A DNA stretch of 64,000 nt from a virus. Positions 6,133 to 60,057 of this stretch are shown piece after piece. The position numbers and the translations under genes were made by a program. The stretch is from positions 6,192 through 70,191 of IMG/VR virus record IMGVR_UViG_3300036893_000044; one strand, 5' to 3'. The first letter of the stretch is position 1. Each line of letters starts with the position of its first letter. The notes beneath the pieces were generated by a model, which saw only the letters and a program-made list of their open reading frames with translations, did not search any database and was not told where the DNA came from.

Positions 6133-6742
6133 CCCACACATGCGCGTGCTGCAACACCCCCTGCAAAGCAAACTTCTCAATATTCGCGCAAAGGTCAATA
6201 TCGCCGTTTTGGTAGACCCGCACCACGGCCACGCCAGTCAGTTTCTCCGCTGAGTCGAGCGCGCGGATGAGAACGTCGGTACAACTCGGCCTATCCCCAC
6301 TTCCACTCGCCAGGTCATTCAGAGTCGGCGCCACGTCTCCTTGAGCAGCAGCCGGCGGCTCGACACGCTGCTTCTCCCAGAACTCCTGCCCTCGCTGCGC
6401 CTGGGCGGCCTTCATCGCCTCTTCCATGCCTTGCTGGACCGCTACCCCTTGCGCGGCCGTCGGAACGCACTGCAGGTGCATCGCGCCATCCGGAAGATAG
6501 TCGCTCTGCTGGACCGGCACGCCGTACAGCACATCCAGAGTTGGCGGAGTCTTCCGATGCCGCAGGAGGTGCCAGATCTTCGCCGCCGTCGATTTGGTCT
6601 GGAAGTGGATGTCGGCCATATCCACGGCAATCGCTGTCGCGGTTTTGCTATTCATTAAGAACGCAAGCGGTCTCTGCCCCCGCGCAAGCAGTTGGTCGAT
6701 CATCATGCGGGCGGCGATCAGGAATTGTGGGTTGGTGGGCAT
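6107..6742 (-). CDS. Hypothetical protein; N-terminus resembles HK97 capsid A-domain
   Basis: P.AFLMN.KT..I...TL..LYGVPVQQSDYLPDG. Confidence 0.6.
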   Translation of the reverse strand: MPTNPQFLIAARMMIDQLLARGQRPLAFLMNSKTATAIAVDMADIHFQTKSTAAKIWHLLRHRKTPPTLDVLYGVPVQQSDYLPDGAMHLQCVPTAAQGVAVQQGMEEAMKAAQAQRGQEFWEKQRVEPPAAAQGDVAPTLNDLASGSGDRPSCTDVLIRALDSAEKLTGVAVVRVYQNGDIDLCANIEKFALQGVLQHAHVWVIQNGDRL

Positions 6743-13876: not shown

Positions 13877-15676
13877 ATGGCCGATTCGACCGAGAGACCG
13901 GAAGCTGCGCTGGAGCGGGAAGTACTCGCCTGGTCCGACTCCGTTTACGACGAAGCGGAGCGGGAACTTGCCGACTCCCGCGAAATTCGGCTGACATCCC
14001 GGCTCATCGACTACATCTCCGGCCAGCAGTGGAACGCTAAATCCCGCTTCGGCCGCAGTCGGCCAACCGTGAACCGCCTCTTCCGGCAGTTCATGGAAAT
14101 GGCGGGTATCCTCACCGACATCGAGCCGGACTTTCAGGTTAAGTTCCACAACGAAGACGAGCAATTCACCGCTCTCCAGACCCTGCTCAACGAGATGATT
14201 ACCATGTGGGCGCAGGTGACGGACTTCGAAGCGGAGCTCACCCAGTCCGTCATGTGGGCGCTGCTCCACACGGGATTCGCCAAAATCCAATGGAACGGCG
14301 CGATGAACAACGGGATGGGGGATAACGAGTTCATGCCCCTTGGACCGCTGAATGTGATGAGTATCGGCGCGGGGAAGAAGCTGCAGGACGACGAATGCGT
14401 CATTGGCCGCTGGCCGGTAACGATCGAAACCCTCAAGCGGACGTTTGGCGAGCTGGCAAACGATGTGCAAGCCGACCTCGAAACCAATGAGCCGACCGGC
14501 GAAGTATCGCGGCCCGGCAAGATGTCGCAGGCGTCATGGGTCCGGCTGAATCCGCAGTTGAAGAAGATGCTCGGCAAACGGCAGTTGGATGGCAAGCGCA
14601 GCCGCTATCCGAAGGCGATGCTCAAGCAATTCTGGTTCAAGGACGCTTCGATCAATGAGGGTTCTGTCACGAAAAGAGTCGGCGACGAGCGGTACAACTG
14701 GTCGTATCTCGTCGAACCCGGAATGCCGTGGTACCCGCGCGGTCGGTTCCTGATTGTCGCCGGCGGCAAGGTTCTCCAGGACCAATGCAATCCCTACTGG
14801 CACGGCATGTTTCCCTTCGCCAAGCTCCGGCTGATTCGGGTGCCATGGTCGAGCCAGGGAGTTTCTCCGCTCGAACCCATAGCCCAAATGTCCGACATCG
14901 TAAACCGGATCAACGGCGGCCTGATGGACATGATTCGAGCCGTGATCGAGCCGCGCATCGTGGCGCCAAAGGCGGCATTCGCACAGTCTGTCTGGGATTC
15001 GATGGATCCCGGCGCACCCGGTTCTAAGATGATGTACAACAACAACACGCCGCGGGAACCGTCTTTCCCCAAACCAGCCGAGTTGCCGGCCTACGTTCTC
15101 CAGATGAAGCAGGATGTCGAGAAAGAGCAGGACATGACATCCGGCGCGTCGGCCATCAACCAGTCTTTGCAGAAAAAGCAGGTGCCGGGCGGAGACTCTC
15201 TGGAGATGATCCTGAATTCCCGGTCGATCCCCGTGCGCTTTATGGGCCGGGGCCTCTACTCGTTTCTCACCGATACCGGTACCCAGGTCGCTTCGAACAT
15301 CATGCAATTCTCGACCTCGAAGAGCCGGATCGCCAAATTCGGCACCAAGGGTCTGACGGACGCCGACTTCGAGCAACCCTTCGGCCAGTGGTTCTCGATG
15401 GCGAAGGGTATGGAGCCGGAGCAGTTCGTGCGCCAGGCGGTGTTCTCCATCCGCAAGGGCAGCTTGCTCGCCATCGAGAAGAACGAGGAAGTACAGATCG
15501 CGTTCTCGATGGTTAAAATGGGCGTGCTGTCGAGGAAGGCGCTGTATCGCAAGCTCGGGATTCCTACCGCTGAACAAGAGCGGATTGAGAAAGAGTTGCT
15601 GGAAGAGGCCAAAGAGAAGATTGCGCTGGCTCAGGCGGCTGGGGCCGGGCAGCATCCCGCACACGGTAAGAAGTGA
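13877..15676 (+). CDS. Portal protein
   Basis: 599 aa after terL; P22-like portal features (NPYWHG.FPF, Q..D.VN, DMTSG.S...Q). Confidence 0.85.
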   Translation: MADSTERPEAALEREVLAWSDSVYDEAERELADSREIRLTSRLIDYISGQQWNAKSRFGRSRPTVNRLFRQFMEMAGILTDIEPDFQVKFHNEDEQFTALQTLLNEMITMWAQVTDFEAELTQSVMWALLHTGFAKIQWNGAMNNGMGDNEFMPLGPLNVMSIGAGKKLQDDECVIGRWPVTIETLKRTFGELANDVQADLETNEPTGEVSRPGKMSQASWVRLNPQLKKMLGKRQLDGKRSRYPKAMLKQFWFKDASINEGSVTKRVGDERYNWSYLVEPGMPWYPRGRFLIVAGGKVLQDQCNPYWHGMFPFAKLRLIRVPWSSQGVSPLEPIAQMSDIVNRINGGLMDMIRAVIEPRIVAPKAAFAQSVWDSMDPGAPGSKMMYNNNTPREPSFPKPAELPAYVLQMKQDVEKEQDMTSGASAINQSLQKKQVPGGDSLEMILNSRSIPVRFMGRGLYSFLTDTGTQVASNIMQFSTSKSRIAKFGTKGLTDADFEQPFGQWFSMAKGMEPEQFVRQAVFSIRKGSLLAIEKNEEVQIAFSMVKMGVLSRKALYRKLGIPTAEQERIEKELLEEAKEKIALAQAAGAGQHPAHGKK

Positions 15677-22872: not shown

Positions 22873-23457
22873 ATGGGCGTCAGACCGTTTAGTGGAGTCA
22901 CAACTCTTGCCGGGACCGCGCAGCCAATCTTTGGAACAGCGGTGACCGCCGCCGTTACTCCGCCGCCAGATCCATTCAGCGGCAACTTGACGCCTGGCTC
23001 GAACGAAACCCAGTGCAATCTGACAGTCACTTCTACCACCGGTTTTCTGCCGGGTGACCGCGTGGCCGTTGGTCTGGCCGCGGCATTCAAGCCCGGCATC
23101 ACGGCGACCGGTTCAATTCCAGATCAAGGAACTGTCAAGTCGATCACCTCGTCAACAGTCATGGTCGTCCAGGGCCTCAAGCAAGCGCATGCCGCAACCG
23201 GGGAGTGGTGTGTGCTCAATGAAGATGCCGGCAACGTGCATTTGACGCCAGTGGCAATCACAGCCATCGCTTATGTCGGCAATGCAAGCACAGTGGCCTC
23301 GACCGATCCGAGCGTCATGGACATCCTGCCGATCACCTCCGGGGATCCATCGCAGGTGCTGGATTTTGAGTCGATCGGCGGAACCCAGCCTATGCAGTTG
23401 TCGCAGTTCTGGATTCTTGGGAGCGGAACGTTTATTCCCAGGTTCACGCAAATCTAA
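22873..23457 (+). CDS. Virion structural protein
   Basis: Thr/Gly/Val-rich, LTVTSTTGF.PGD beta motif. Confidence 0.6.
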   Translation: MGVRPFSGVTTLAGTAQPIFGTAVTAAVTPPPDPFSGNLTPGSNETQCNLTVTSTTGFLPGDRVAVGLAAAFKPGITATGSIPDQGTVKSITSSTVMVVQGLKQAHAATGEWCVLNEDAGNVHLTPVAITAIAYVGNASTVASTDPSVMDILPITSGDPSQVLDFESIGGTQPMQLSQFWILGSGTFIPRFTQI

Positions 23458-23459
23458 GT

Positions 23460-23531
23460 TAGAATAGGGGTGTCGGGTGTCTCACCACCCGGCTCTCACC
23501 TCATCGTTCGGAGAAACGACTATGACACCCC
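23460..23531 (+). promoter_or_regulatory. -10 box plus three-way-junction leader sequestering HNH start (copy 1)
   Basis: TAGAAT; GGGGTGTC/GACACCCC; CGGGTG/CACCCG; TCGTT/AACGA. Confidence 0.75.
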
Positions 23532-24205
23532 ACGAAGACATCATACCCTACGGTTACTGCCATTGCGCCTGTGGGCAGAAGACCCTTATTGCGATTCGCG
23601 GCTGGAAGGACGTGAAAGCCGGAGAGCCGAGGAGGTATATCCACGGCCATTCGCACCGGATAAGGTCGATAATTGAAGATGCAAAACCATTTAAACTTGC
23701 AGACGAATATTGCCGACTCATTCCTCTTTCTCGAGGTTTATGGTGTATCGTCAGCGCCCATCGCTACGAGTATCTTATGCAATGGAAATGGTACGCATGG
23801 TTTTGGGAAAAGACCGGGAAATTCTACGCCGTGAGGAGTGGCCCGAGGATTAATGGAAGCCCAACTAGGATACTCATGCACCGCGCCATTCTTGGCTTGA
23901 TAGGTGGGGATAGAAGGCGTGGCGATCATATTGTTTCCGAAGACACACTAAATAATGCCGATAAAAACCTGCGCACAGGAACTGCTTCACAGAACAATCA
24001 AAACAGCAAAATAAGATCCGACAACACTACCGGATTCAAGGGCGTGTACTTTTATAAAGACGGTCGCAAAAAGCCGTGGATGGCACACATAACTGTAGAT
24101 AGAAAGCGGATCATTCTCGGTTATTTTGAAACCAAAGAAGAGGCGTACGAGGCTTATTGTGATGCCGCCAAAAAATACTTTGGCGAGTTTGCTAGGCTCA
24201 AGTAA
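23522..24205 (+). CDS. HNH-AP2 homing endonuclease 1
   Basis: GYCHCACG, MHRAI, DH..TLNN..NLR..QN..N, NTTGFKGV..LGYF...EEAY.AY..AA..YFGEFA. Confidence 0.9.
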   Translation: MTPHEDIIPYGYCHCACGQKTLIAIRGWKDVKAGEPRRYIHGHSHRIRSIIEDAKPFKLADEYCRLIPLSRGLWCIVSAHRYEYLMQWKWYAWFWEKTGKFYAVRSGPRINGSPTRILMHRAILGLIGGDRRRGDHIVSEDTLNNADKNLRTGTASQNNQNSKIRSDNTTGFKGVYFYKDGRKKPWMAHITVDRKRIILGYFETKEEAYEAYCDAAKKYFGEFARLK

Positions 24206-24214
24206 AATGAAGCG

Positions 24215-24910
24215 ATGGCAACAACCCCCATTTCGGTGCTCGCGGCGAACATTCAGAGTCGTTTAGAAGAGGTGCCGGGAAGCGCTGGGAGTTGGTGGAG
24301 CCAGCAGTTTGAAATCTTCAGCGCAATTGAGGAAGCTCAAAACGATCTGCTATTGTTGGTTGGCAGGCCAACAAGTTACGTCAACGTCCCCTTCACCCTC
24401 GTTCCGAATAACTGCTTTCAGACAGTCCCGAAGGGCTTGCTACTCATCACCGACGTTCAAGGATTCTCGTCCCCGTTATACAAGGTGAATTTGATAGATT
24501 TAGATTTTTTAATGACGAGCTGGGGGCCGGATTGGGCTCAAGATGTGGACAACGCGGCTTACCGGTGGGCGCCAATCGGGTTCAATATGTTCGCGGTTCA
24601 TCCGGCAGTCGCCACGGCGCAGACCGTCAACATCACCGCAATTCAGTATCCGACGACCGATGTCTGGCCCTATACTGGAGCGGAGACGGTTCAGTTTGAA
24701 GACAATTACTTCCAGTTGATTGAGGAGTATGCTGCCTTCTACTGCCGCATCAAGGAGATGGGTGGGGAGTTCCAGGAGGGCATGAAGCTATTCGAGCAAT
24801 ACATGCTCGGCGCGAAGCGCATGACCCAGATTCAAGACAAGCGCGACCCGTTACTCTTCACTTCCGGCTTCGGCGGAACTCAGAACGTCAACCCGGGAAC
24901 AAGGCGATAA
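24215..24910 (+). CDS. Putative head-tail connector/tail tubular protein
   Basis: Adaptor-like motifs (IEEAQ, AVHP, EYAA.Y); late operon. Confidence 0.6.
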   Translation: MATTPISVLAANIQSRLEEVPGSAGSWWSQQFEIFSAIEEAQNDLLLLVGRPTSYVNVPFTLVPNNCFQTVPKGLLLITDVQGFSSPLYKVNLIDLDFLMTSWGPDWAQDVDNAAYRWAPIGFNMFAVHPAVATAQTVNITAIQYPTTDVWPYTGAETVQFEDNYFQLIEEYAAFYCRIKEMGGEFQEGMKLFEQYMLGAKRMTQIQDKRDPLLFTSGFGGTQNVNPGTRR

Positions 24911-24961
24911 TTGTAAAAGTTGGCACAAAATATTCCACTTTTTATTCCAAGGAGGAATTCA

Positions 24962-25270
24962 ATGGCGAACATATCAGCGTTTCACGGCGAAGTCTCAAAG
25001 TGTTCATGTGGACTCGCAGATCATCCCGAAGGAACCGGCGAGCGCGCCTGTGGCCTTTGTTTTGGCAGAGCCTTTGTGGCTTCTTGCACTGCATGCGATG
25101 GCAAAGGCAAAGTCGAGCAGAAGATGGCCGGTGGGCCTGGCACGATGTCCGCGACGTGCTCCCTTTGCGGTGGAAAGGGCGTCTACGGCGTCAACAAGCC
25201 GGCAGACTGGGAAGAGACGCATCCAGCGCAAATTCCCGTCCCGCAAGAGAGCGCTCCTGCGATAGCATAA
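24962..25270 (+). CDS. DnaJ-type zinc-finger protein
   Basis: AGGAGG RBS; CxxCxG repeats. Confidence 0.65.
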   Translation: MANISAFHGEVSKCSCGLADHPEGTGERACGLCFGRAFVASCTACDGKGKVEQKMAGGPGTMSATCSLCGGKGVYGVNKPADWEETHPAQIPVPQESAPAIA

Positions 25271-25324
25271 GGGCGGGGGTGTGCCATTTCAATCCCGGGG
25301 CTCGGATACAGGACGGCTGGCGAT

Positions 25325-26383
25325 TTGCTAATGGAAGTCGCATTCCACTTGGCACAACCAGCCGTCTACGACACCCTCGTCAACCCCATCACCGCTGGCG
25401 CAGGCGTCACCGCCACAATTCAGTCCACCACCTATGTCTACCCCGGCGCTCAACTCGTCATCGAGAAGCCGGGGGTTTCCTCGCAGGAAGTCGTAACGAT
25501 TCTGACGGTCCCCTCGGCCACCACCTTCACCGCCAATTTTGCCAACAATCATTTGGCAGTGGTCCCCGCCTGGGGGCCGACATTCCCCACCCAGCAAGGC
25601 ACGGACCCGATCTTCACCCAGTCCGAGATGCTGCAGTACCTGTCGCGCGCGCAAAACGAGTTTTTGACGGCCGTACCCTGCTTCTACCAGCGGTTCTTCC
25701 AGAACGTGAGCATGGGGCAGATTTATCAGGCAACGCCTCCAACAGCCATCCTCATCGATCGCATTGCGGCCTCCGCCATCGACATCGGCATCACGTCCAT
25801 GGTGCGCAGCGGCAATATCGTCACGCTTACCGCGGTATCGCCCACAAACCTCGTCCAATACAACACGTTGTCAGTGGTCGGCGCGACCGATTCATCCTTC
25901 AATGGCGTGTTTGCCGTGATCAGCGCGCCGTCCGCGAACGTCATCACCTACCGGCAGATTGCGGCGGATGGATCGACAACCGGCGGCAATATTCAGTCTA
26001 TGTTAAGACTGTACGAGGTCACGCAGGAGGAGCTCGTCCAGCAGAATCGGGCATGGCAGTCGAGCTATGTTGGACCCTTGCAAAGTTGGTTTGAGGATCG
26101 GGCTGGGCTTTATCAATGGGGAGTTGGCGGGCTACCGAGTTCGACGTTCCCGGTGGAGTTGCTAGTAGCTTGTCGAGATAGCGATAGCCTCACGCTTCTA
26201 GATAGCTTCCTCGTCCCAGACGTGGTGGTCCATGCTCTGAAGTATAAGGTTCTTCAATGGTGCTGGGACAAGGACGGCATAGCCCAACAGCCACAGATGG
26301 CGCAGTTTTGTGGGAAGAGATACGATCAAATTGTCATGGCTGCTCAGAGATACATCCAAGCGATGAAGATGAATGTTCGATAG
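25325..26383 (+). CDS. Virion adaptor-like protein with beta-repeat inserts
   Basis: FT.SE..QYL..AQNEF adaptor motif, FCCH-like insert; true start may be upstream. Confidence 0.65.
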   Translation: MLMEVAFHLAQPAVYDTLVNPITAGAGVTATIQSTTYVYPGAQLVIEKPGVSSQEVVTILTVPSATTFTANFANNHLAVVPAWGPTFPTQQGTDPIFTQSEMLQYLSRAQNEFLTAVPCFYQRFFQNVSMGQIYQATPPTAILIDRIAASAIDIGITSMVRSGNIVTLTAVSPTNLVQYNTLSVVGATDSSFNGVFAVISAPSANVITYRQIAADGSTTGGNIQSMLRLYEVTQEELVQQNRAWQSSYVGPLQSWFEDRAGLYQWGVGGLPSSTFPVELLVACRDSDSLTLLDSFLVPDVVVHALKYKVLQWCWDKDGIAQQPQMAQFCGKRYDQIVMAAQRYIQAMKMNVR

Positions 26384-27068
26384 GCACGAAGCTACCATAG
26401 AGTTCAATTTCTTTCGCTTTACGCACAGCCACGGCTTTATCGAAGTCTTTGTAATTACCCAAGTGATAGCGGGTTCCGCCTTTGGCTATTACGACATGCC
26501 ACTTCTCTGACTCTTTCATCCAAACCACGCCGGGGTAGCCGCTCGTATTGTTCGACTGCGTGTTGCGATTGAAGGTATTTTCTGAGCGAGTAGACAGTCT
26601 CAGATTAGCAATTCTGTTGTCGAGGCCGTTGCGGTTTTTATGATCGACAAACATCCCCGGAGGAGGGTGGAGAATAAGGTTATGCAGACGGAGGGGAATC
26701 CTCTGACCGCCCACAATGTCAGTTCTGGTCGCGTAAAAAGTCTTATTTTTAGGGGAGTAATGAGCGCACCAAAACGCAGCATTTATACGGTTATATTCAC
26801 TTGTATCGACTAGAGAGAACAGTCCTTGCGTGAGAGCAATTAAGCGTACCGACAGATCCACTGGATGTTCGGTTGTGGATCGTTTTTTGACCGCTCCGTG
26901 GCCCATACTGAAGGCCTTTGGTATGCCTCTTTTCCAGCCAAAATAAGTGTTGGTTTTGAGGGCGACAGTAGTGGTACGACTGCACCCGCAGTGGCATGTT
27001 CCAAGAGGAATTTGGCAGGCAGGATCGCCGCAAATGCACAGTGCTACACTCAATTCGTGGGGTGTCAT
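26334..27068 (-). CDS. HNH-AP2 homing endonuclease 2
   Basis: CICGDPAC.IP.G.CHCGC, LHNLI, VDHKNRNGLDNR..NLR, NTSGYPGV, AP2 tail. Confidence 0.9.
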   Translation of the reverse strand: MTPHELSVALCICGDPACQIPLGTCHCGCSRTTTVALKTNTYFGWKRGIPKAFSMGHGAVKKRSTTEHPVDLSVRLIALTQGLFSLVDTSEYNRINAAFWCAHYSPKNKTFYATRTDIVGGQRIPLRLHNLILHPPPGMFVDHKNRNGLDNRIANLRLSTRSENTFNRNTQSNNTSGYPGVVWMKESEKWHVVIAKGGTRYHLGNYKDFDKAVAVRKAKEIELYGSFVPIEHSSSSLGCISEQP

Positions 27069-27131
27069 AGTCGGATTCGCCTCCGATGAAGGTTTGCACC
27101 GGGGTTCCCGCCCCGACACCCCTTTATTGTA
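27059..27131 (-). promoter_or_regulatory. -10 box plus three-way-junction leader (copy 2)
   Basis: TACAAT; GGGGTGTC/GACACCCC; CGGGG/CCCCG; TCGGA/TCCGA. Confidence 0.75.
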
Positions 27132-27166
27132 AACCATATAGACGACTCGTGGCATATACTATTCGC

Positions 27167-27454
27167 GTGCCTAAACTCCACAAAGTCGGAGACGACTACT
27201 ACGCCTTTCATTGCCCCGGCTGCGGATACGGCCATGCGGTGACCGTCAACGGAAGGCAAAATTCTCAAGGTGCAAGCTGGGGTTGGAATGGTTCAATGGA
27301 TAAGCCAACATTCACACCGTCGATCAACTGCAACGCCGATGATCCGCCGCATCGTTGCCACAGTTTCGTGCGAGACGGCCAAATTCAATTTCTCGGCGAC
27401 TGCTTCCATATCCTCAAAGGGCAGACTGTTGATTTGCCGGATTGGGACGACTAA
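27167..27454 (+). CDS. DUF6527-like protein
   Basis: FHCPGCG..H..W.WNG..KPTF.PSI..CHSFVRDG.IQFL.DC.H.L.GQTV.LPDW; leaderless after TATACT. Confidence 0.8.
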   Translation: MPKLHKVGDDYYAFHCPGCGYGHAVTVNGRQNSQGASWGWNGSMDKPTFTPSINCNADDPPHRCHSFVRDGQIQFLGDCFHILKGQTVDLPDWDD

Positions 27455-27933
27455 TGCCCGCTCCCGCCAAACCCACAAATCGCCCCGTCGCCCCCAAGCA
27501 GCAACCGCCGCCGATCCAGCGCTTCCAGTTCACCAAGGAAGACTTCTCGACAGATGCAGGTGTAGCCCGCGTCAATGCGATGATGGCGCAGCACGCGACG
27601 GCCGTCCAGGCACTGCAAGGTTCCGGCGGCCGAACGACGCTGTTCTCGGGTCTCGACGTGCAGGGCGAGACAGTGACGGGCGTTGGATCTCCGCAGGGGC
27701 CGAGCGATGCGGTGTCGCTGGCGCATGCCAACGGCAACTATTCAGCTCCCGCTGTCGGGCCGCAATTAGACATCGGCGGCAGCAATGCCCTGCCTGGCTT
27801 ATCATCGATCTATCTTCAGATGACGCAGGCGTTCTCGGGGACGATTGCGCTCGCCAAGTTAACCACCCTTGGGGCGAACGGTAGCATCACGGTGGCAAAT
27901 GGTTTGATCACGAAGGTTATGCCAGCGACGTAG
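27454..27933 (+). CDS. Virion structural protein
   Basis: Late operon; NGSITV.NGLIT C-terminal fibre-type motif. Confidence 0.6.
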   Translation: MPAPAKPTNRPVAPKQQPPPIQRFQFTKEDFSTDAGVARVNAMMAQHATAVQALQGSGGRTTLFSGLDVQGETVTGVGSPQGPSDAVSLAHANGNYSAPAVGPQLDIGGSNALPGLSSIYLQMTQAFSGTIALAKLTTLGANGSITVANGLITKVMPAT

Positions 27934-27940
27934 GTGAGAG

Positions 27941-30900
27941 ATGTCCGTCGATACTTCCTATAAACCCGTAGAGTACATTTATATTGATCACGGCCTGATC
28001 TCCCGTGATGTCGAAGATCAGTGCCCGCCCGGAACTTACTTGCAAGCAATGAACACGCTTGCCAGAAGCGAAAACGCAATGTCCTCGCGCTACGGCACGC
28101 AGATCATCAACCGCGATGCGCAAGGCAGCGGAACCAGCAATCATTACTTTCCGGCTGCGGTAACATCCCTCTCCCGCCTCAATTATCAATCGAATGCTTG
28201 GCGTTATGCTGGCCTCGGCAATGGCTCGCTCCAGCGCCGCGCAGGCAACACCCAAGGCGCATACACGCAACTGACTCTACCGACAACCTGGACCGGAACC
28301 CAAATCGTTCTCTCCGGACAGCCTTTCGACTCGCTCATAACGAATTGCTTCGAGACTTCTCAGGCGTATCTTTTCATCGCAGATGCCGCGGCGAGCATAA
28401 AAGATGCCGGCACAAGCAATCCGCAACTCTGGGGCATCGACCCATCGCCCTATACGGTCAATGCGCTGCCATACGCTCCACTGCTCATCATGATCGACAG
28501 TTTCGCTACGGCGAACACTTACACGACGGCGAATGTAACTGGATGGGCCTTTGGCGCTATCGAGACGCTGGACGCAAACTCTGGTGCGCTGATAACAGAC
28601 TTTAGTCAGTTTTACGGCGTAGGACCATCCGGCGGCGGGACCACGAATTACAACTTCTCGCCGACGACAGGCACGGTGACCGCAACACAATCTGGCACTG
28701 GCAACAACACGCAGACCTCATCAGCGCAGACGGAACCTACTTCGATTGTCCCAAGCGCAGGCGAAGCGGTCTCGATGACGGTAGTGTGGAACGCTTCGAT
28801 ATCGATAAGTGGCGGGTCCGGCTATGGCGGGTGGGTGATTCAATACAGTCCCGATGGAGGCACTACCTGGCTTCAGATAACATCCGGAACCTCTGGGTCC
28901 AATGTCACTACGCCGACAATCACGTCTAACATCTCAGTCACCGTTCCAAACATCAACCTGCTTCAGGTGCGGGCGCAAGCCTCTTCAGCCGTACCCAGTG
29001 GTGGCGCAACAGTTGTCACCACTGCCAACATCACCAACGCTTACGTGACCGTCAACAATCCCGGCGCATTTGGACCCGTGACGAATGGGATGCTGTCGCT
29101 GCTCAACACCAACACTTCGGTTAATGTCCCGATTGCATCGGTGGCCTCGCAGACTCTCGTCGCTGGCCTCTACACGCAACTTCTGATCACGACTTCGACG
29201 GCGCATGGCTTGTCAGCCGGCGCGCTCATTGCGGTCTACGCGTCATCTTCCGATCTTGTGGACGGATTCTATAAAGTGATTGCGGCACCGACCACGACGA
29301 CTCTTACCGTGGCTTTTACCTCGGCCACGCTGATTGGCGCGACTGGCGGCTATGTGACGGGTGGAGCGGCTGCTCCCTACGCATGCGTTCTGACGGACGA
29401 GTACAGCGCCCCGTATCCATCGCAGATGAGTGCATGGGGATTCTACGAGTGGGTGCCGCCCACGACAACCGCATTTCCAATCTCAGCCTGGGCCGGGAAT
29501 GTTGCGGCGAGTACCAGCGGGACGGTGAGCGCATCGCCCGCCCTCGACCTTAACCAAAACAATCAGGTGACGGACGGCGACTTGATTGTTATCACCCTGT
29601 TGACCTCAAATCCGGCGAACATATCGCAGATTCAACTTCAGTTCTGGGTGGGTAATAGCAATACCGGCAATCCAAGCAATTATTATTCCGCGTTCATCTC
29701 CCCAGCCTATTATCAGGGAGCTTTGAGTGGCAGTACGCTGGCGTACCAGGCAACGCAGAGTCAGATTCTAGCTGACACCCTCAACCTCATTACCGGGCAG
29801 CCGCCGGGGACGACATCGGCTCAACTGCAACCGTCTAATATCTCGACGGGGGCAAGCGCGTGGCAGGCATGCTACATCCCGCGCGGGAACTTCCTTCCTG
29901 TGGGTCAAGCGGGACAAGCGGGCCTCGACTGGGCAAACGTTACCGGTTGGACGCTGACCGTCACGACGAATGCGAATGTCGGCGGCGTGTCGTTCTCCGT
30001 CAACGGCCTCTACCTGCAATGGGGGTACGGACCGAGCTCTTTCGCTGGCGTAGGCTACGACTGGCGGCAAACCTACTACAACGCCAACACTGGCACTGAA
30101 TCAAATCCAACGCCCGCTCAGGAGTTCAACGAAGATTACGGGTATCTGGCCTCAACATCTGCGCCGATCTTCCTGCGGCAAGCTGCGCAGTGCGTGGGCT
30201 ACTATTCGCCGGACCCCCAGGTGACACACGTTCGCTTCTATCGCAGAGGTGGAACTCTCAGTGCGAACTGGGTGCAGGTCGGGCAGATTCCGAATATTAC
30301 CGGCACCGGCCAGGTAGTGTTCAAGGACGTGATTGCGGATGCGTACATAGAGCAGGCGCAGATTCTGGTTTTGGACAATGATCCGCCCGTCACTTCGTCG
30401 CTCATCAATCCGATTCAGACGACGCTATCTGCGGCAACTTCGCCTCCCGGGTCTTCGATCTATTCGACCTTCGCTCCGCAGACCGTGACCGTGGCGCAAT
30501 CCGGCGCAGTCTTCGTCCCCAATCAACTTGTGGTGGTCGGCAACCCGTCAAACCTCGAGATCGTTTCGGTGATTGCAGGTGGAACAGGAACATTCTCGGC
30601 CGTCATTCGCCTGCAACACAACGTCGGTGAGCCAGTCAACGTCTATGCCGTGCCGCGGCAGCCGTGTAACCTCTGCGCGTTTGCTTATAACCAGGCATGG
30701 CTGGCCGGCGACCCGAACAATCCGCACTACCTCTACTATTCGAAGAAAGGCCTGCCGGAGAACTTCGGGCCTCAGAATTACATCCCGGTATCGACTCCCG
30801 ATGATCCGATCAATGCTGTCATCAATTGGCGCGGGACTTTGATCGTCGGCACTTTGAAGTCGTGGTGGATCATTGTCGGTGGCGCATCGCCATACGCGCA

Positions 30901-32050
30901 GCCGACAGGCTCTGTGCACGGCATCGTCGCACAGCAAGGATGGATTGAGGTGGAAGGTGCGATCTGGTACGCGGCTGCGGACGGTTTGCGCGAGTTCTCA
31001 GGCGCGGATGGCGCATACAAGACGCTTCCCGTCGAGTGGATCTTCCGTGGCAATCCGGAATGTCTGCCGCCGCAAGCAGACCCGACGCAGTTTTCGCAGA
31101 CGATCATGGCGTACTACAACAACGTGGTCTTCTCAAGCTATGTGAGCCTCAATGCGGGCCAGCGGTACAGGCTAAATTACGACACTCAGTATCAGCGGTA
31201 CCGGAACGACGACGTTCCCGCCACCGCAATGCTTTGGGAGAAAGACATCAACACCTTGCTCGTCGGCAAGCAAATCGGCGCAGGCCAGTACGCTGTGGTT
31301 CAGGATCAGGTAGGCGATTATGATGACGGCGGCTGGGTGTCCGGCGCTTTAGTCCAGACGCCGATAAATCTGACGATTCAGCATCCGTATCGCGATCTTG
31401 GAAAGCCGCACGACAAAAAGCAATTCAATATGCTGGAGACGGATTGCAACACGCAAAACCAAATCCTAAATACGACGCTCTTATTTGAAGACGGATTCAT
31501 ATCTGTTCCGCTGGCAACTATCAACACAGGTACAAGTCGGCGCAAGGCTGAGTCGATTGTCACCGGTGCAAGTGATCCCGAAGGCGGAGGGCAAGAGGCA
31601 TATCGTGTTTCAATCCTGCATACAATGGCCGTGACCGTGGCGCCGACACTCTTCCAGGAGGAGTTAGGCGTAGCTTTGCTGCCGGGAGAGCAGGTGAGTT
31701 TCGACACCTACTGGCAAAAGTGCGGAACCGATCAATCGAAATTTTTCAAACAGGTTTACCTCGATTATACTTCGCCGGTTGCGATCACTTGTTCTGTTTA
31801 TGCAGATGGAAGCGTAACGCCGTATTTCACATTTACGCTCCCGGCGCTGGCAAACCGCGCCATTATCCGTGTTCGCATGGGTAATGTTAATTCCGGTACA
31901 ACCGCTTTCACGATGCGGACCTGGCGACTGATTATACTCACGACAAGCACAGCCGACCCGTTGCAAGGATTCAAACTTTGGCAGAAACCAAGAGTCGAAT
32001 GGAAACCTATAGGAAACAATAGTTACCAGATCAAAGAGTTGGAGGTGTAG
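27941..32050 (+). CDS. Tail tubular/stabilisation (nozzle) protein
   Basis: 1369 aa beta-rich; propeller-like LYYSK..PENF, GTLIV; position before ejection genes. Confidence 0.7.
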   Translation: MSVDTSYKPVEYIYIDHGLISRDVEDQCPPGTYLQAMNTLARSENAMSSRYGTQIINRDAQGSGTSNHYFPAAVTSLSRLNYQSNAWRYAGLGNGSLQRRAGNTQGAYTQLTLPTTWTGTQIVLSGQPFDSLITNCFETSQAYLFIADAAASIKDAGTSNPQLWGIDPSPYTVNALPYAPLLIMIDSFATANTYTTANVTGWAFGAIETLDANSGALITDFSQFYGVGPSGGGTTNYNFSPTTGTVTATQSGTGNNTQTSSAQTEPTSIVPSAGEAVSMTVVWNASISISGGSGYGGWVIQYSPDGGTTWLQITSGTSGSNVTTPTITSNISVTVPNINLLQVRAQASSAVPSGGATVVTTANITNAYVTVNNPGAFGPVTNGMLSLLNTNTSVNVPIASVASQTLVAGLYTQLLITTSTAHGLSAGALIAVYASSSDLVDGFYKVIAAPTTTTLTVAFTSATLIGATGGYVTGGAAAPYACVLTDEYSAPYPSQMSAWGFYEWVPPTTTAFPISAWAGNVAASTSGTVSASPALDLNQNNQVTDGDLIVITLLTSNPANISQIQLQFWVGNSNTGNPSNYYSAFISPAYYQGALSGSTLAYQATQSQILADTLNLITGQPPGTTSAQLQPSNISTGASAWQACYIPRGNFLPVGQAGQAGLDWANVTGWTLTVTTNANVGGVSFSVNGLYLQWGYGPSSFAGVGYDWRQTYYNANTGTESNPTPAQEFNEDYGYLASTSAPIFLRQAAQCVGYYSPDPQVTHVRFYRRGGTLSANWVQVGQIPNITGTGQVVFKDVIADAYIEQAQILVLDNDPPVTSSLINPIQTTLSAATSPPGSSIYSTFAPQTVTVAQSGAVFVPNQLVVVGNPSNLEIVSVIAGGTGTFSAVIRLQHNVGEPVNVYAVPRQPCNLCAFAYNQAWLAGDPNNPHYLYYSKKGLPENFGPQNYIPVSTPDDPINAVINWRGTLIVGTLKSWWIIVGGASPYAQPTGSVHGIVAQQGWIEVEGAIWYAAADGLREFSGADGAYKTLPVEWIFRGNPECLPPQADPTQFSQTIMAYYNNVVFSSYVSLNAGQRYRLNYDTQYQRYRNDDVPATAMLWEKDINTLLVGKQIGAGQYAVVQDQVGDYDDGGWVSGALVQTPINLTIQHPYRDLGKPHDKKQFNMLETDCNTQNQILNTTLLFEDGFISVPLATINTGTSRRKAESIVTGASDPEGGGQEAYRVSILHTMAVTVAPTLFQEELGVALLPGEQVSFDTYWQKCGTDQSKFFKQVYLDYTSPVAITCSVYADGSVTPYFTFTLPALANRAIIRVRMGNVNSGTTAFTMRTWRLIILTTSTADPLQGFKLWQKPRVEWKPIGNNSYQIKELEV

Positions 32051-32052
32051 TA

Positions 32053-32271
32053 GTGGCGTTCAAACGGTGCGAAGGACTCGATAGGGCGCGTAAAGAGTGC
32101 CGCTCGCGAAACAACAAAGCAGTTTGGATGGTCGATGGAAAGCTCTTTTGCGGTAGCTGCTTTGAGCACTACCTGGAAACTCATTCCATCGACGAGGCCA
32201 GAATTCATCGGCTCTCAGATCGCGAAGTTGATTTCTCGGAGACAGCCAGGCAATACACAGCGAGAGCGTGA
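32053..32271 (+). CDS. Small Zn-finger protein
   Basis: GGAGG RBS; C..C..FCGSC. Confidence 0.55.
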   Translation: MAFKRCEGLDRARKECRSRNNKAVWMVDGKLFCGSCFEHYLETHSIDEARIHRLSDREVDFSETARQYTARA

Positions 32272-32991
32272 CTATACAACGCAAGCGAATTCGCCGAAGT
32301 ATTTGCGAGCCGCAGCACAATATGCAGCGTAGGCTAATTCCGCCGTGGCGAACAATCCGAGGTACAGATATTTACCATCCACCCTAATTCTCGCAGTCCA
32401 TTTTCTTGATCCCTTAGACCATGAAACGCCCTTATATCCACTGGTATTATTCTTCTGCTTACGGCGATTCTGTTGCTGCTGGGTGCGATTAGCAAGACGC
32501 AAATTACTGTCACGATTATCCAGTGTTCTCCATGGTTTCTTGTGGTCCCCTTTACGTGGATCGCCAGCTTTTAATCCAAGGATTTGGCGATGCATGGAAA
32601 TTGTTCCGCGCATCCCATCCTCTCTTGGATTCAGATTACGTACTGCATAAAACCCCTTTACGCTCTCACACCAAACAGCGCACCACTTCCACTGCATTAA
32701 GTAGGTATAGCGATGAGCACTGACAATAGCCCACTGGCCATTCATTAAAGGGATGAATCGCGCTCCTCTGATGAGCGTCGGACGCTCGCTTTCGGATGGC
32801 CTGATGCCCGATTTGTGGCCACATAGAAACTTATATGGCTCACCTGCCCAAAACCCATTTGTTCTATCTGTGCAACGTGAAATGTTTGTCTTTTTCCCGC
32901 ACCGGCAATGGCAGTAGCCATACGGAATATCGCAGGCGGGATCGCCACAGATGCAACCGTTTAGTGTTACAGTGATTTTGCGAGGGGTCAT
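32272..32991 (-). CDS. HNH-AP2 homing endonuclease 3
   Basis: CICGDPACDIPYGYCHCRCG, MHRQI, DH..TLDNR.SNLR, NTSGYKGV, AP2 tail YFGEFA. Confidence 0.9.
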   Translation of the reverse strand: MTPRKITVTLNGCICGDPACDIPYGYCHCRCGKKTNISRCTDRTNGFWAGEPYKFLCGHKSGIRPSESERPTLIRGARFIPLMNGQWAIVSAHRYTYLMQWKWCAVWCESVKGFYAVRNLNPREDGMRGTISMHRQILGLKAGDPRKGDHKKPWRTLDNRDSNLRLANRTQQQQNRRKQKNNTSGYKGVSWSKGSRKWTARIRVDGKYLYLGLFATAELAYAAYCAAARKYFGEFACVV

Positions 32992-33053
32992 GGTCGTTCC
33001 TCCAGAACGATTAGGCTTGCCAGGCGCTTCCAACGCCCGACCCCTCTAGTATA
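32982..33053 (-). promoter_or_regulatory. -10 box plus three-way-junction leader (copy 3)
   Basis: TATACT; GAGGGGTC/GACCCCTC; CGGGCG/CGCCTG; TCGTTC/GAACGA. Confidence 0.75.
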
Positions 33054-33066
33054 TCAAAATTTCCTG

Positions 33067-33110
33067 TTGCAGAAACGGCGGTTGCAAGCGTATTCTTTGT
33101 TGCAAGCGTG
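33067..33110 (+). promoter_or_regulatory. Promoter with two TTGCAAGCGT operator copies
   Basis: TTGCAG-18-TATTCT; motif at 33081 and 33099. Confidence 0.6.
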
Positions 33111-33413
33111 ACTACGCTAAGACGAGGGAACAAATTGGAAGTCAAGAACCTTGAACTCGCATCAATCTCTTTCAGCGAAGCCCCCACCAAATCACAGATC
33201 GTCAATATGCTCAGGGATATTCACAAGTTCCTCGGCAGGGTTGGCGGCGCACTCATTCTCGACGAGAGTTATTCGATTGCCGATCCGCCGCTCGGTGCCA
33301 TGCTGAATGCGTCCATCCAGTTGAAGGCGAGCGCGGATCAATTCGAGCAAGGGCCGAATGCGGCCGGCCTCGCAGTTCCGCAGGGTGGACCCCAGGTTGT
33401 CGGACGGCGGTAG
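33108..33413 (+). CDS. Hypothetical protein
   Basis: ORF after promoter; start uncertain. Confidence 0.55.
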   Translation: MTTLRRGNKLEVKNLELASISFSEAPTKSQIVNMLRDIHKFLGRVGGALILDESYSIADPPLGAMLNASIQLKASADQFEQGPNAAGLAVPQGGPQVVGRR

Positions 33414-33643
33414 TGGAATCGCTGATCCTCAAACCACGCACCGTTGGCATCTCGCACCTTGCCCGTCTCCAGTTGGAATTCCCTAAATACGCAGATGCAC
33501 CTTTGGAATTCTGGAGAAGTCTTCATCAGGAGGCGGTCAAGGCGCATCGCACCATCGACGAACAACTCATGCTGGCGACCGGCGGCGATCTGGTTGCCAT
33601 GAAGGAAAGGAAATTGAAATGCTCATCATCCAAGCCGCAGTAG
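33413..33643 (+). CDS. Hypothetical protein
   Basis: Coupled ORF. Confidence 0.5.
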   Translation: MESLILKPRTVGISHLARLQLEFPKYADAPLEFWRSLHQEAVKAHRTIDEQLMLATGGDLVAMKERKLKCSSSKPQ

Positions 33644-44799: not shown

Positions 44800-44828
44800 T
44801 TGACGGGACGGTTGCAAGCGTGGATACT
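44800..44828 (+). promoter_or_regulatory. Sigma70 promoter with operator in spacer
   Basis: TTGACG-17-GATACT containing GTTGCAAGCGTG. Confidence 0.65.
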
Positions 44829-46885: not shown

Positions 46886-46950
46886 TTGACGATTGCGGTT
46901 TGCAAGCGTGAAAATAAATGTTGACGACTCGGTTTGCAAGCGTGTACTGT
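46886..46950 (+). promoter_or_regulatory. Tandem promoters with operator repeats
   Basis: Two TTGACGA..CGGTTTGCAAGCGTG units at 46886 and 46921. Confidence 0.7.
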
Positions 46951-60017: not shown

Positions 60018-60057
60018 TTGCAAGCGTGATCCTTTGTGTTGTAATGTTGCAAGCGTG
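60006..60057 (+). promoter_or_regulatory. Integrase upstream region with two operator copies
   Basis: GTTGCAAGCGTG at 60017 and 60046. Confidence 0.65.

Follow-up and report, generated by a model that had tools for sequence, protein, structure and literature searches.

Control of an endonuclease gene by an RNA structure at its own initiation region has been shown experimentally for I-TevI of phage T4, in which RNA from upstream promoters folds into a structure that shuts the initiation region, while a promoter in or at the 5′ arm of that structure gives transcripts that escape it (PMC2988022). The same scheme is described there for I-TevII, I-TevIII, segB, and mobE of Aeh1. Among marine “fractured gene” loci, conserved hairpins found in metagenomes occupy the 5′ untranslated region of genes for GIY-YIG and Vsr-like endonucleases, and 10 of these hairpins contain a promoter element (Dassa et al. 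2009; PMC2677866). A comparable logic underlies sigma-B-dependent translational activation in Bacillus subtilis, where the shorter 5′ end supplied by an internal promoter frees an initiation region that the longer transcript keeps closed; the genes in that case are cellular stress genes under an alternative sigma factor and not a mobile cassette (bioRxiv 10.1101/2021.03.06.434181). The present analysis concerns a structured leader RNA that precedes three nuclease genes of a peat-soil phage, IMG/VR record IMGVR_UViG_3300036893_000044 (70,191 bases). The stretch analyzed, hereafter the window, comprises 64,000 nucleotides (nt), positions 6,192–70,191 of that record.

The anatomy of these loci matches the scheme given for the T-even phages, in agreement with the likeness to I-TevI noted in an earlier, sequence-only reading of the window. 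As in the T-even endonucleases, a selfish nuclease gene would lie in a longer transcription unit, its initiation region would be closed on read-through RNA, and a promoter within or next to the 5′ arm would yield transcripts that cannot fold the structure (PMC2988022). The T4 structures treated there, however, are single hairpins that hold the Shine-Dalgarno sequence (SD), whereas here a long-range helix on the start codon and codons 2 and 3 closes a junction of four helices. The T4 promoter is of the gp55 type (TATAAATA), whereas the box found here is of the sigma-70 type, TAnAAT. Moreover, the leader is a single alignable family that precedes five nuclease families in uncultivated soil and peat viruses, and it is known from sequence alone. 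The marine hairpins are likewise simple and carry a T4-type TATAAATA, their nuclease families and habitat differ from those described here, and the accessible text on them describes neither a multi-helix junction nor pairing with the coding region (PMC2677866).

In the three window copies, the −10-like hexamers, stems, and start codons all lie where the sequence-only reading had placed them (Table 1), and two further points of that reading hold among the aligned leaders: the pairs of helix P1 reach the start codon and codons 2 and 3 and covary, and helix P3 overlaps the SD. The reading had drawn a three-way junction. In fact, a fourth short helix, P2b, is present and makes the junction four-way. 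This GG(C)/(G)CC stem has 2–3 base pairs (bp), and its variants, GGA/TCC and GAC/GTC among them, are compensated. The P2 hairpin proposed earlier is real, but its stem as then delimited borrowed the last C of P1. P1 of copy 1 has a 3′ arm of eight bases, which runs from the G of the ATG through the seven that follow. Two P1 pairs of copy 3 differ from those of copy 1 on both sides and are thus compensatory; in the 3′ arm, they are synonymous third-position changes in the codons for Thr2 and Pro3. When each sequence is folded singly, P1 belongs to the minimum-energy structure in all three copies, although with modest z-scores (−1.8, −3.1, and −2.9).

Ten leaders, the three in the window plus seven on related viral contigs, served to build a covariance model. 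For the covariation analysis, sources that repeated the hit coordinates and score of another source were dropped, and the 49 remaining matches gave 48 distinct rows. Covariation in a wider alignment had been announced as a test of the fold, and in these 48 leaders it is strong. Standard pairs occupy 92.1% of the cells, as against 36.6–45.1% when the 3′ partners are slid by 1–3 columns. Both sides change in 19 of the 21 pairs, and 169 cells hold such both-side changes, compared with 13–26 in the slid controls; none of 500 shuffles reaches any of the observed covariation measures. The covarying pairs are spread over all helices (7 of 8 in P1, 4 of 5 in P2, 3 of 3 in P2b, and 5 of 5 in P3). As a control for the model-fitted alignment, 55 leaders were aligned by sequence only with MAFFT, and the result was folded with RNAalifold. 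P1 (6 pairs) and P2 (4 pairs) were recovered, all with compensatory changes, while P3 was lost because its variable loop was misaligned. The comparative evidence indicates that the RNA structure is real and that it has four helices.

P1 is paired at all eight positions in 38 of the 55 leaders, at seven in 14, and at six in three. It meets the start codon in two registers, one formed by the G of AUG and the following ACNCCNN, the other by the whole AUG (the GGGGCATC/GATGCCCC class). The residues M-T-P are what the 3′ arm of P1 encodes, and this N-terminus occurs with 29 of the 55 leaders, across unrelated proteins that share little beyond their first residues. The modeled fold thus predicts an initiation region occluded by a stable RNA structure, as in control of the T4 type.

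Within the window, the model has exactly three matches, and a scan of the whole 70,191-base record returned the same three only. The 55 distinct leader sequences come from uncultivated viruses of peat, soil, and permafrost. When loci were collected by protein similarity to an alignment of 12 HNH-AP2 proteins, a model match just before the gene and on the same strand was present in 24 of 82 viral sources and, at E ≤ 0.001, in 43 of 93 genome and metagenome sources. The sources lacking a match mostly encode short-form proteins devoid of the N-terminal segment or have other upstream sequence. Only one of 13 bacterial-genome loci carries the leader, on a 17.7 kb contig of a Terriglobia metagenome-assembled genome. 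A megablast search of 50,697 phage records found no isolate close to positions 23000–33500, and a blastn search of the same records with the leader gave only a chance 29-nt match. The 63 kb record of Tunturiibacter phage Tunturi_2, a cultured Acidobacteria phage with a related short HNH gene, has no model match. Nuclease 2, used as a single query, has no confirmed relative in the viral contigs.

The earlier reading recognized no named RNA family in the leader, and Rfam 15 gave no match in the window at gathering scores. At E ≤ 10, the three loci gave five hits at chance level (14–22 bits, against gathering scores of 33–60); four of them lie away from the leaders, and the fifth, mir-17 (18.1 bits, E 4.2), may overlap the leader region of copy 3. 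A hammerhead ribozyme, brought to mind by the conserved GUC before P2, was considered and rejected, because the rest of its core is missing, as judged by eye, and because Rfam offers no match. HEARO, the omega RNA of IscB, is an HNH-associated structured RNA next to an HNH nuclease gene and is in Rfam. It is a long guide RNA, whereas the element described here is a short translational leader that no Rfam family matches. A different and longer leader, without a model match, precedes an HNH-AP2 homologue on another viral contig (L016:539–612, locus coordinates) and forms an 8-bp helix, AGGGCATC/GATGCCCT, over the start codon. Other leader types built on the same principle may therefore exist.

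The leader had first been taken as a feature shared by HNH-AP2 endonuclease genes, and this is correct in part. The three window proteins are homologous: they are paralogues, two of them with 52% and 33% identity to the product of gene 1, and they align with 716 homologues. Pfam HNH_3 (PF13392) scores over its cut-off only for gene 2 (41.5 bits vs. 24.8) and has no match in genes 1 and 3 at E 0.001, while Pfam AP2 (PF00847) stays just below its cut-off of 33.3 in genes 1 and 3 (32.3 and 32.2 bits). Nor is the leader confined to HNH-AP2 genes. Model scans of 15 related whole viral contigs gave 17 matches in 12 contigs. Five of these had not turned up in the collection by protein similarity; they lie before two Endonuclease_7 genes, an HNH_2 gene, a PDDEXK_5 gene, and another HNH_3 gene. 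Three scans of the viral collection with a protein-independent pattern (−10 hexamer, degenerate P1 ends, P3 end, and ATG) returned 13 loci with nine distinct leaders. Four of these precede genes of the HNH_3/AP2 type, one an Endonuclease_7 gene, one a PDDEXK_5 gene (this leader is present on five contigs), and two a gene of phrog_3377, “HNH endonuclease”; the ninth lies before an open reading frame (ORF) of 69 amino acids that has no family match. With the exception of this ORF, every leader checked for its downstream gene precedes a recognizable nuclease gene. By these family assignments, the leader serves at least five unrelated nuclease families.

The −10 box had been described as lying only 1–3 nt before P1, and in 43 of 47 leaders the gap is 0–2 nt; it is exactly 1 nt in 33. 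Within the 11 nt before P1, TATAAT is matched at five or more of six positions in 43 of the 47, compared with 2.0% of random 11-nt windows from the same loci, and TANNNT fits 45, compared with a background of 6.2%. The hexamers are TATAAT (15 leaders), TAAAAT (9), TAGAAT (6), TATACT (5), TACAAT (5), and others (7). They show the conservation pattern of a classic −10 element, with T1, A2, and T6 nearly invariant and position 3 free, and none of those in the 47 leaders has the form of the T4 late promoter TATAAATA. The nucleotide 7 nt past the box is the sixth of P1, and it is a purine in 46 of the 48 rows. The pattern would suit an active promoter, whose transcripts would start inside P1.

The reading we favor, with a probability of roughly 60%, is control of the I-TevI type, in which read-through messenger RNA (mRNA) is silent and the gene’s own transcript is translatable. 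Each nuclease gene would travel as a self-contained cassette of −10 box, leader of about 65 nt, ORF, and a few further bases. In read-through RNA, a P1 helix of 8–10 bp would join the G-rich stretch that follows the −10 box to the start codon and codons 2 and 3; P2, P2b, and P3 would fill the interior of the four-way junction, with P3 partly holding the SD. The initiation region would then be closed, and no nuclease would be made from such mRNA. Own transcripts, by contrast, would begin about 7 nt past the box, at the conserved purine that is the sixth nucleotide of the 5′ arm. They would keep only three nucleotides of this arm, could not form P1, and would be translatable. They would also start 2–3 nt before P2, which would then be a 5′-terminal stabilizer. 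Hairpins at the 5′ terminus are known to stabilize bacterial mRNA against decay, which suggests this role for P2; the translational effect of P1 is predicted from the modeled fold.

Several observations agree with such control. Of 45 evaluable leaders, 30 follow a co-directional open frame, 10 are divergent, and five are ambiguous; in the window, only copy 1 is co-directional with its upstream gene. The stop codon of the upstream frame begins 6–12 nt before P1 in 19 of 33 co-directional cases. This leaves no room for a terminator, so that read-through is expected, and no terminator-like site was found before copy 1. The computed energy needed to open the region from the SD to the start codon averages 12.7 kcal/mol with 60 nt of upstream RNA but 8.3 kcal/mol when the RNA begins at the predicted start, and the difference is at least 3 kcal/mol in 28 of 47 leaders. 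Finally, the occurrence of one leader before unrelated nuclease families favors a cis mechanism that is independent of the encoded protein.

Other observations weigh against this reading. The difference in opening energy is below 3 kcal/mol in the other 19 of the 47 leaders, copy 1 included (6.5 vs. 5.7). Copies 2 and 3 are antisense to all neighboring genes, which leaves nothing obvious upstream to be silenced, and no upstream transcript is evident for the 10 divergent leaders. P1 is not better kept where read-through is expected, as it is perfect in 9 of 10 divergent leaders and in 18 of 30 co-directional ones. This may mean that cassettes are mobile enough to be under selection in every context, or else that the complete leader matters in all transcripts. 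The conservation of P2b and of the junction sequence is not explained by the model. Assembled contigs of two metatranscriptome runs included no RNA contig over any nuclease gene or leader. As for the promoter, nothing is conserved in the −35 region of the 47 leaders, and the region holds eight promoter-like sites, compared with 9.3 expected in shuffled sequence. G-rich discriminators can support promoter activity in the absence of a −35 element. Without such an element, activity would rest on the −10 box alone, perhaps helped by the G at −14, which is partly conserved (25 of 47 leaders), and by the G-rich segment after the box.

An unlikely alternative is that the full leader is present in all transcripts and acts as a constitutive damper or a trans-acting switch, the junction keeping a potentially toxic nuclease low until it is opened by a phage or host factor, whether protein, small RNA, ligand, or temperature. 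In that case, TAnAAT would mark a promoter with a start further upstream than assumed here, or one with another role. The intact P1 of divergent leaders fits this alternative, as do the conservation of P2b and the junction beyond the needs of simple sequestration and the compactness of the junction, which has almost no unpaired linker. Yet the fixed gap of 0–2 nt between box and P1 makes it impossible for the box to direct a start upstream of P1. Furthermore, no riboswitch or other Rfam family matches the leader, its unpaired junction positions are few and not invariant, and no candidate trans-acting factor was identified. A bolder conjecture, which we likewise consider doubtful, is that the leader does more than clamp passively and is an exchangeable riboregulator in the form of a four-way junction, acquired time and again by unrelated selfish nucleases along with its first three codons. 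Opened by a phage or host factor or by the state of infection, it would time expression in any genomic context and orientation, and its G-rich 5′ arm would serve both as promoter discriminator in DNA and as silencer strand in RNA.

Translational coupling, in which ribosomes that finish the upstream gene melt P1 and the nuclease is translated only together with that gene, is very improbable. The upstream stop codons close to P1 would suit it, but a ribosome halted 6–12 nt before P1 would, on general grounds, open one or two base pairs at most. In addition, re-initiation would have to span about 65 nt to reach the nuclease start codon, which is too far, and for 10 of 45 leaders there is no upstream gene in the same direction. 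Slightly less credible still is autoregulation, in which the nuclease would bind its own leader RNA or the promoter-leader DNA, much as I-TevI represses its own late promoter by binding an operator that overlaps it (PMC2988022). All nucleases after the leader do possess N-terminal segments rich in CxxC. A common binding specificity is unlikely, however, for at least five unrelated nuclease families; covariation reflects selection for base pairing and not for a fixed DNA sequence, and a comparison of the leader with the empty-site junction of cassette 1, made by eye only, showed no likeness. That the stems are merely functionless sequence inherited by paralogous genes can practically be dismissed, for although the three window genes are paralogues and leaders gathered with a model from ten of them are alike by construction, the idea is already contradicted by the covariation (169 pair-keeping cells with both sides changed vs. 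at most 26 in the slid controls), the compensation includes synonymous positions of Thr2 and Pro3, and the leader is joined to non-homologous ORFs.

That the leader and its gene form a portable cassette, as the sequence-only reading had proposed, is borne out by the exact borders of cassette 1 and by alleles that lack it. Cassette 1 fits exactly between the stop codon of the upstream gene, which ends at 23457, and the next ATG at 24215. Contigs from public peat and permafrost runs (two metatranscriptome and two DNA runs) were compared with positions 23200–33100. In contigs of three runs, the likeness to the window ends at 23457; in runs X3 and X20, the contig passes from there straight to the start of the next gene, and in run X4, 294 other letters follow before the contig matches the window again from 24512. 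One contig with the cassette-1-free junction comes from an RNA library. Presence/absence polymorphism of this kind, at a precise intergenic site between syntenic genomes, is the behavior of a free-standing homing endonuclease cassette. Indeed, a syntenic relative of 92.9 kb, with about 68% nucleotide identity, retains gene 1 in the same position, but genes 2 and 3 are missing from it. For gene 3, one X4 contig joins 32262 to 33079 without it, weakly so, as the shorter side spans 22 letters and the depth is 2.8. The stop codon of gene 3 abuts that of the plus-strand ORF 32053–32271.

Table 1. Coordinates of the leaders, nuclease genes, cassette, and repeated motif in the window. Minus-strand elements other than genes are given in their 5′ to 3′ direction; paired arms are separated by a slash.
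Feature	Position	Strand	Details
−10-like hexamer, copy 1	23460–23465	+	TAGAAT; spacer to P1, A
Leader RNA, copy 1	23467–23531	+	Model score 82.8 bits
P1, copy 1	23467–23474 / 23524–23531	+	5′ arm GGGGTGTC; 3′ arm GACACCCC
P2, copy 1	23475–23479 / 23486–23490	+	
P2b, copy 1	23491–23492 / 23499–23500	+	
P3, copy 1	23504–23508 / 23515–23519	+	
SD, copy 1	23510–23513	+	GGAG
Start codon, copy 1	23522–23524	+	ATG
HNH-AP2 nuclease gene 1	23522–24205	+	227 amino acids; Pfam AP2 32.3 bits; 716 homologues
Mobile cassette 1	23458–24214	+	GT, −10 box, one base, leader, HNH-AP2 ORF, 9 nt
−10-like hexamer, copy 2	27131–27126	−	TACAAT; spacer to P1, AAA
Leader RNA, copy 2	27122–27059	−	Model score 58.5 bits
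P1, copy 2	27122–27115 / 27066–27059	−	5′ arm GGGGTGTC
P2, copy 2	27114–27111 / 27104–27101	−	
P2b, copy 2	27100–27099 / 27092–27091	−	
P3, copy 2	27086–27082 / 27075–27071	−	
SD, copy 2	27084–27080	−	GGAGG
Start codon, copy 2	27068–27066	−	ATG
HNH_3 nuclease gene 2	26334–27068	−	244 amino acids; Pfam HNH_3 41.5 bits; antisense to plus-strand flanking genes
−10-like hexamer, copy 3	33053–33048	−	TATACT; spacer, A; TGa before box (extended −10)
Leader RNA, copy 3	33046–32982	−	Model score 79.7 bits
P1, copy 3	33046–33039 / 32989–32982	−	5′ arm GAGGGGTC; 3′ arm GACCCCTC
P2, copy 3	33038–33034 / 33026–33022	−	
P2b, copy 3	33021–33020 / 33015–33014	−	
P3, copy 3	33010–33006 / 32998–32994	−	
SD, copy 3	33003–32999	−	GGAGG
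Start codon, copy 3	32991–32989	−	ATG
HNH-AP2 nuclease gene 3	32272–32991	−	239 amino acids; antisense to plus-strand flanking genes
Motif TTGCAAGCGT	33082–33091, 33100–33109, 44812–44821, 46900–46909, 46934–46943, 60018–60027, 60047–60056	+	Exact match

Further differences between alleles were observed around the insertion sites. In the gene downstream of cassette 1, alleles that carry the cassette and alleles that lack it diverge by more than 10% over the first ~100 codons (24215–24512) and are nearly identical over the rest. This looks like a co-conversion tract or divergence of the target site, with which it is compatible, and is not proof of homing. A promoter-like site, TTGGCG-17 nt-TAAAAT at 24180–24208 (+), lies in the 3′ end of gene 1, just before the next gene. 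T4 cassettes similarly carry promoters for downstream host genes; such sites are at chance level in this region. One contig of run X4 replaces 26157–27480, which includes gene 2, its leader, and a DUF6527 gene, with 1179 other letters, and a different insert may occupy this site in other members of the population. The DUF6527 gene (95 amino acids, 27167–27454, +; Pfam 55.2 bits) is divergent from gene 2 and is absent at this place in the syntenic relative. It begins with GTG 6 nt after a TATACT hexamer, and its mRNA may therefore be leaderless.

As to the surroundings of the cassettes, Pfam gives a weak portal match at 13877–15676, which is followed by several very large ORFs, and a DnaB helicase and a methylase are encoded elsewhere in the window. 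From the portal match and the large ORFs, the cassettes probably lie in a structural module. A PHROGs search of flanking genes gave no family for seven window proteins, and an eighth belongs to one family of unknown function. The 10-mer TTGCAAGCGT has exactly seven copies in the window, all on the plus strand, six of which are paired at a distance of 18–34 nt. With one mismatch allowed, 14 matches were found, compared with 5.4 expected, and none of 100 shuffles reached 14. The motif occurs at or just before the starts of the plus-strand ORFs at 33108, 46934, and 60034, and the syntenic relative has it as an inverted pair at the site matching 33100. A function as a phage operator or as part of a promoter is probable.

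The regulatory logic proposed here is already known, and no description of this particular leader was found in the literature searched. What is new is the fold, in which four helices form a junction that shuts over the start codon, in place of a hairpin on the SD, together with the sigma-70-type box, the habitat and virus group, and the shuffling of one alignable family among five nuclease families. Being one alignable family, the leader could enter RNA family databases, and with its model, free-standing nuclease cassettes can be located in viral metagenomes and their true start codons assigned. Such ORFs are often made too long at the upstream end by gene callers; several database homologues are 275–301 amino acids long, as against the ~230 expected. 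The element is 80 nt long and experimentally tractable. Under control of the I-TevI type, the T4 solution would have arisen in, or spread to, unrelated uncultivated viruses of soil and peat, with a different promoter type and a more elaborate fold. Joined as it is to at least five unrelated nuclease families, the leader is a clear example of a regulatory module that is itself shuffled between selfish genes, and its 3′ arm dictates the first codons, M-T-P.

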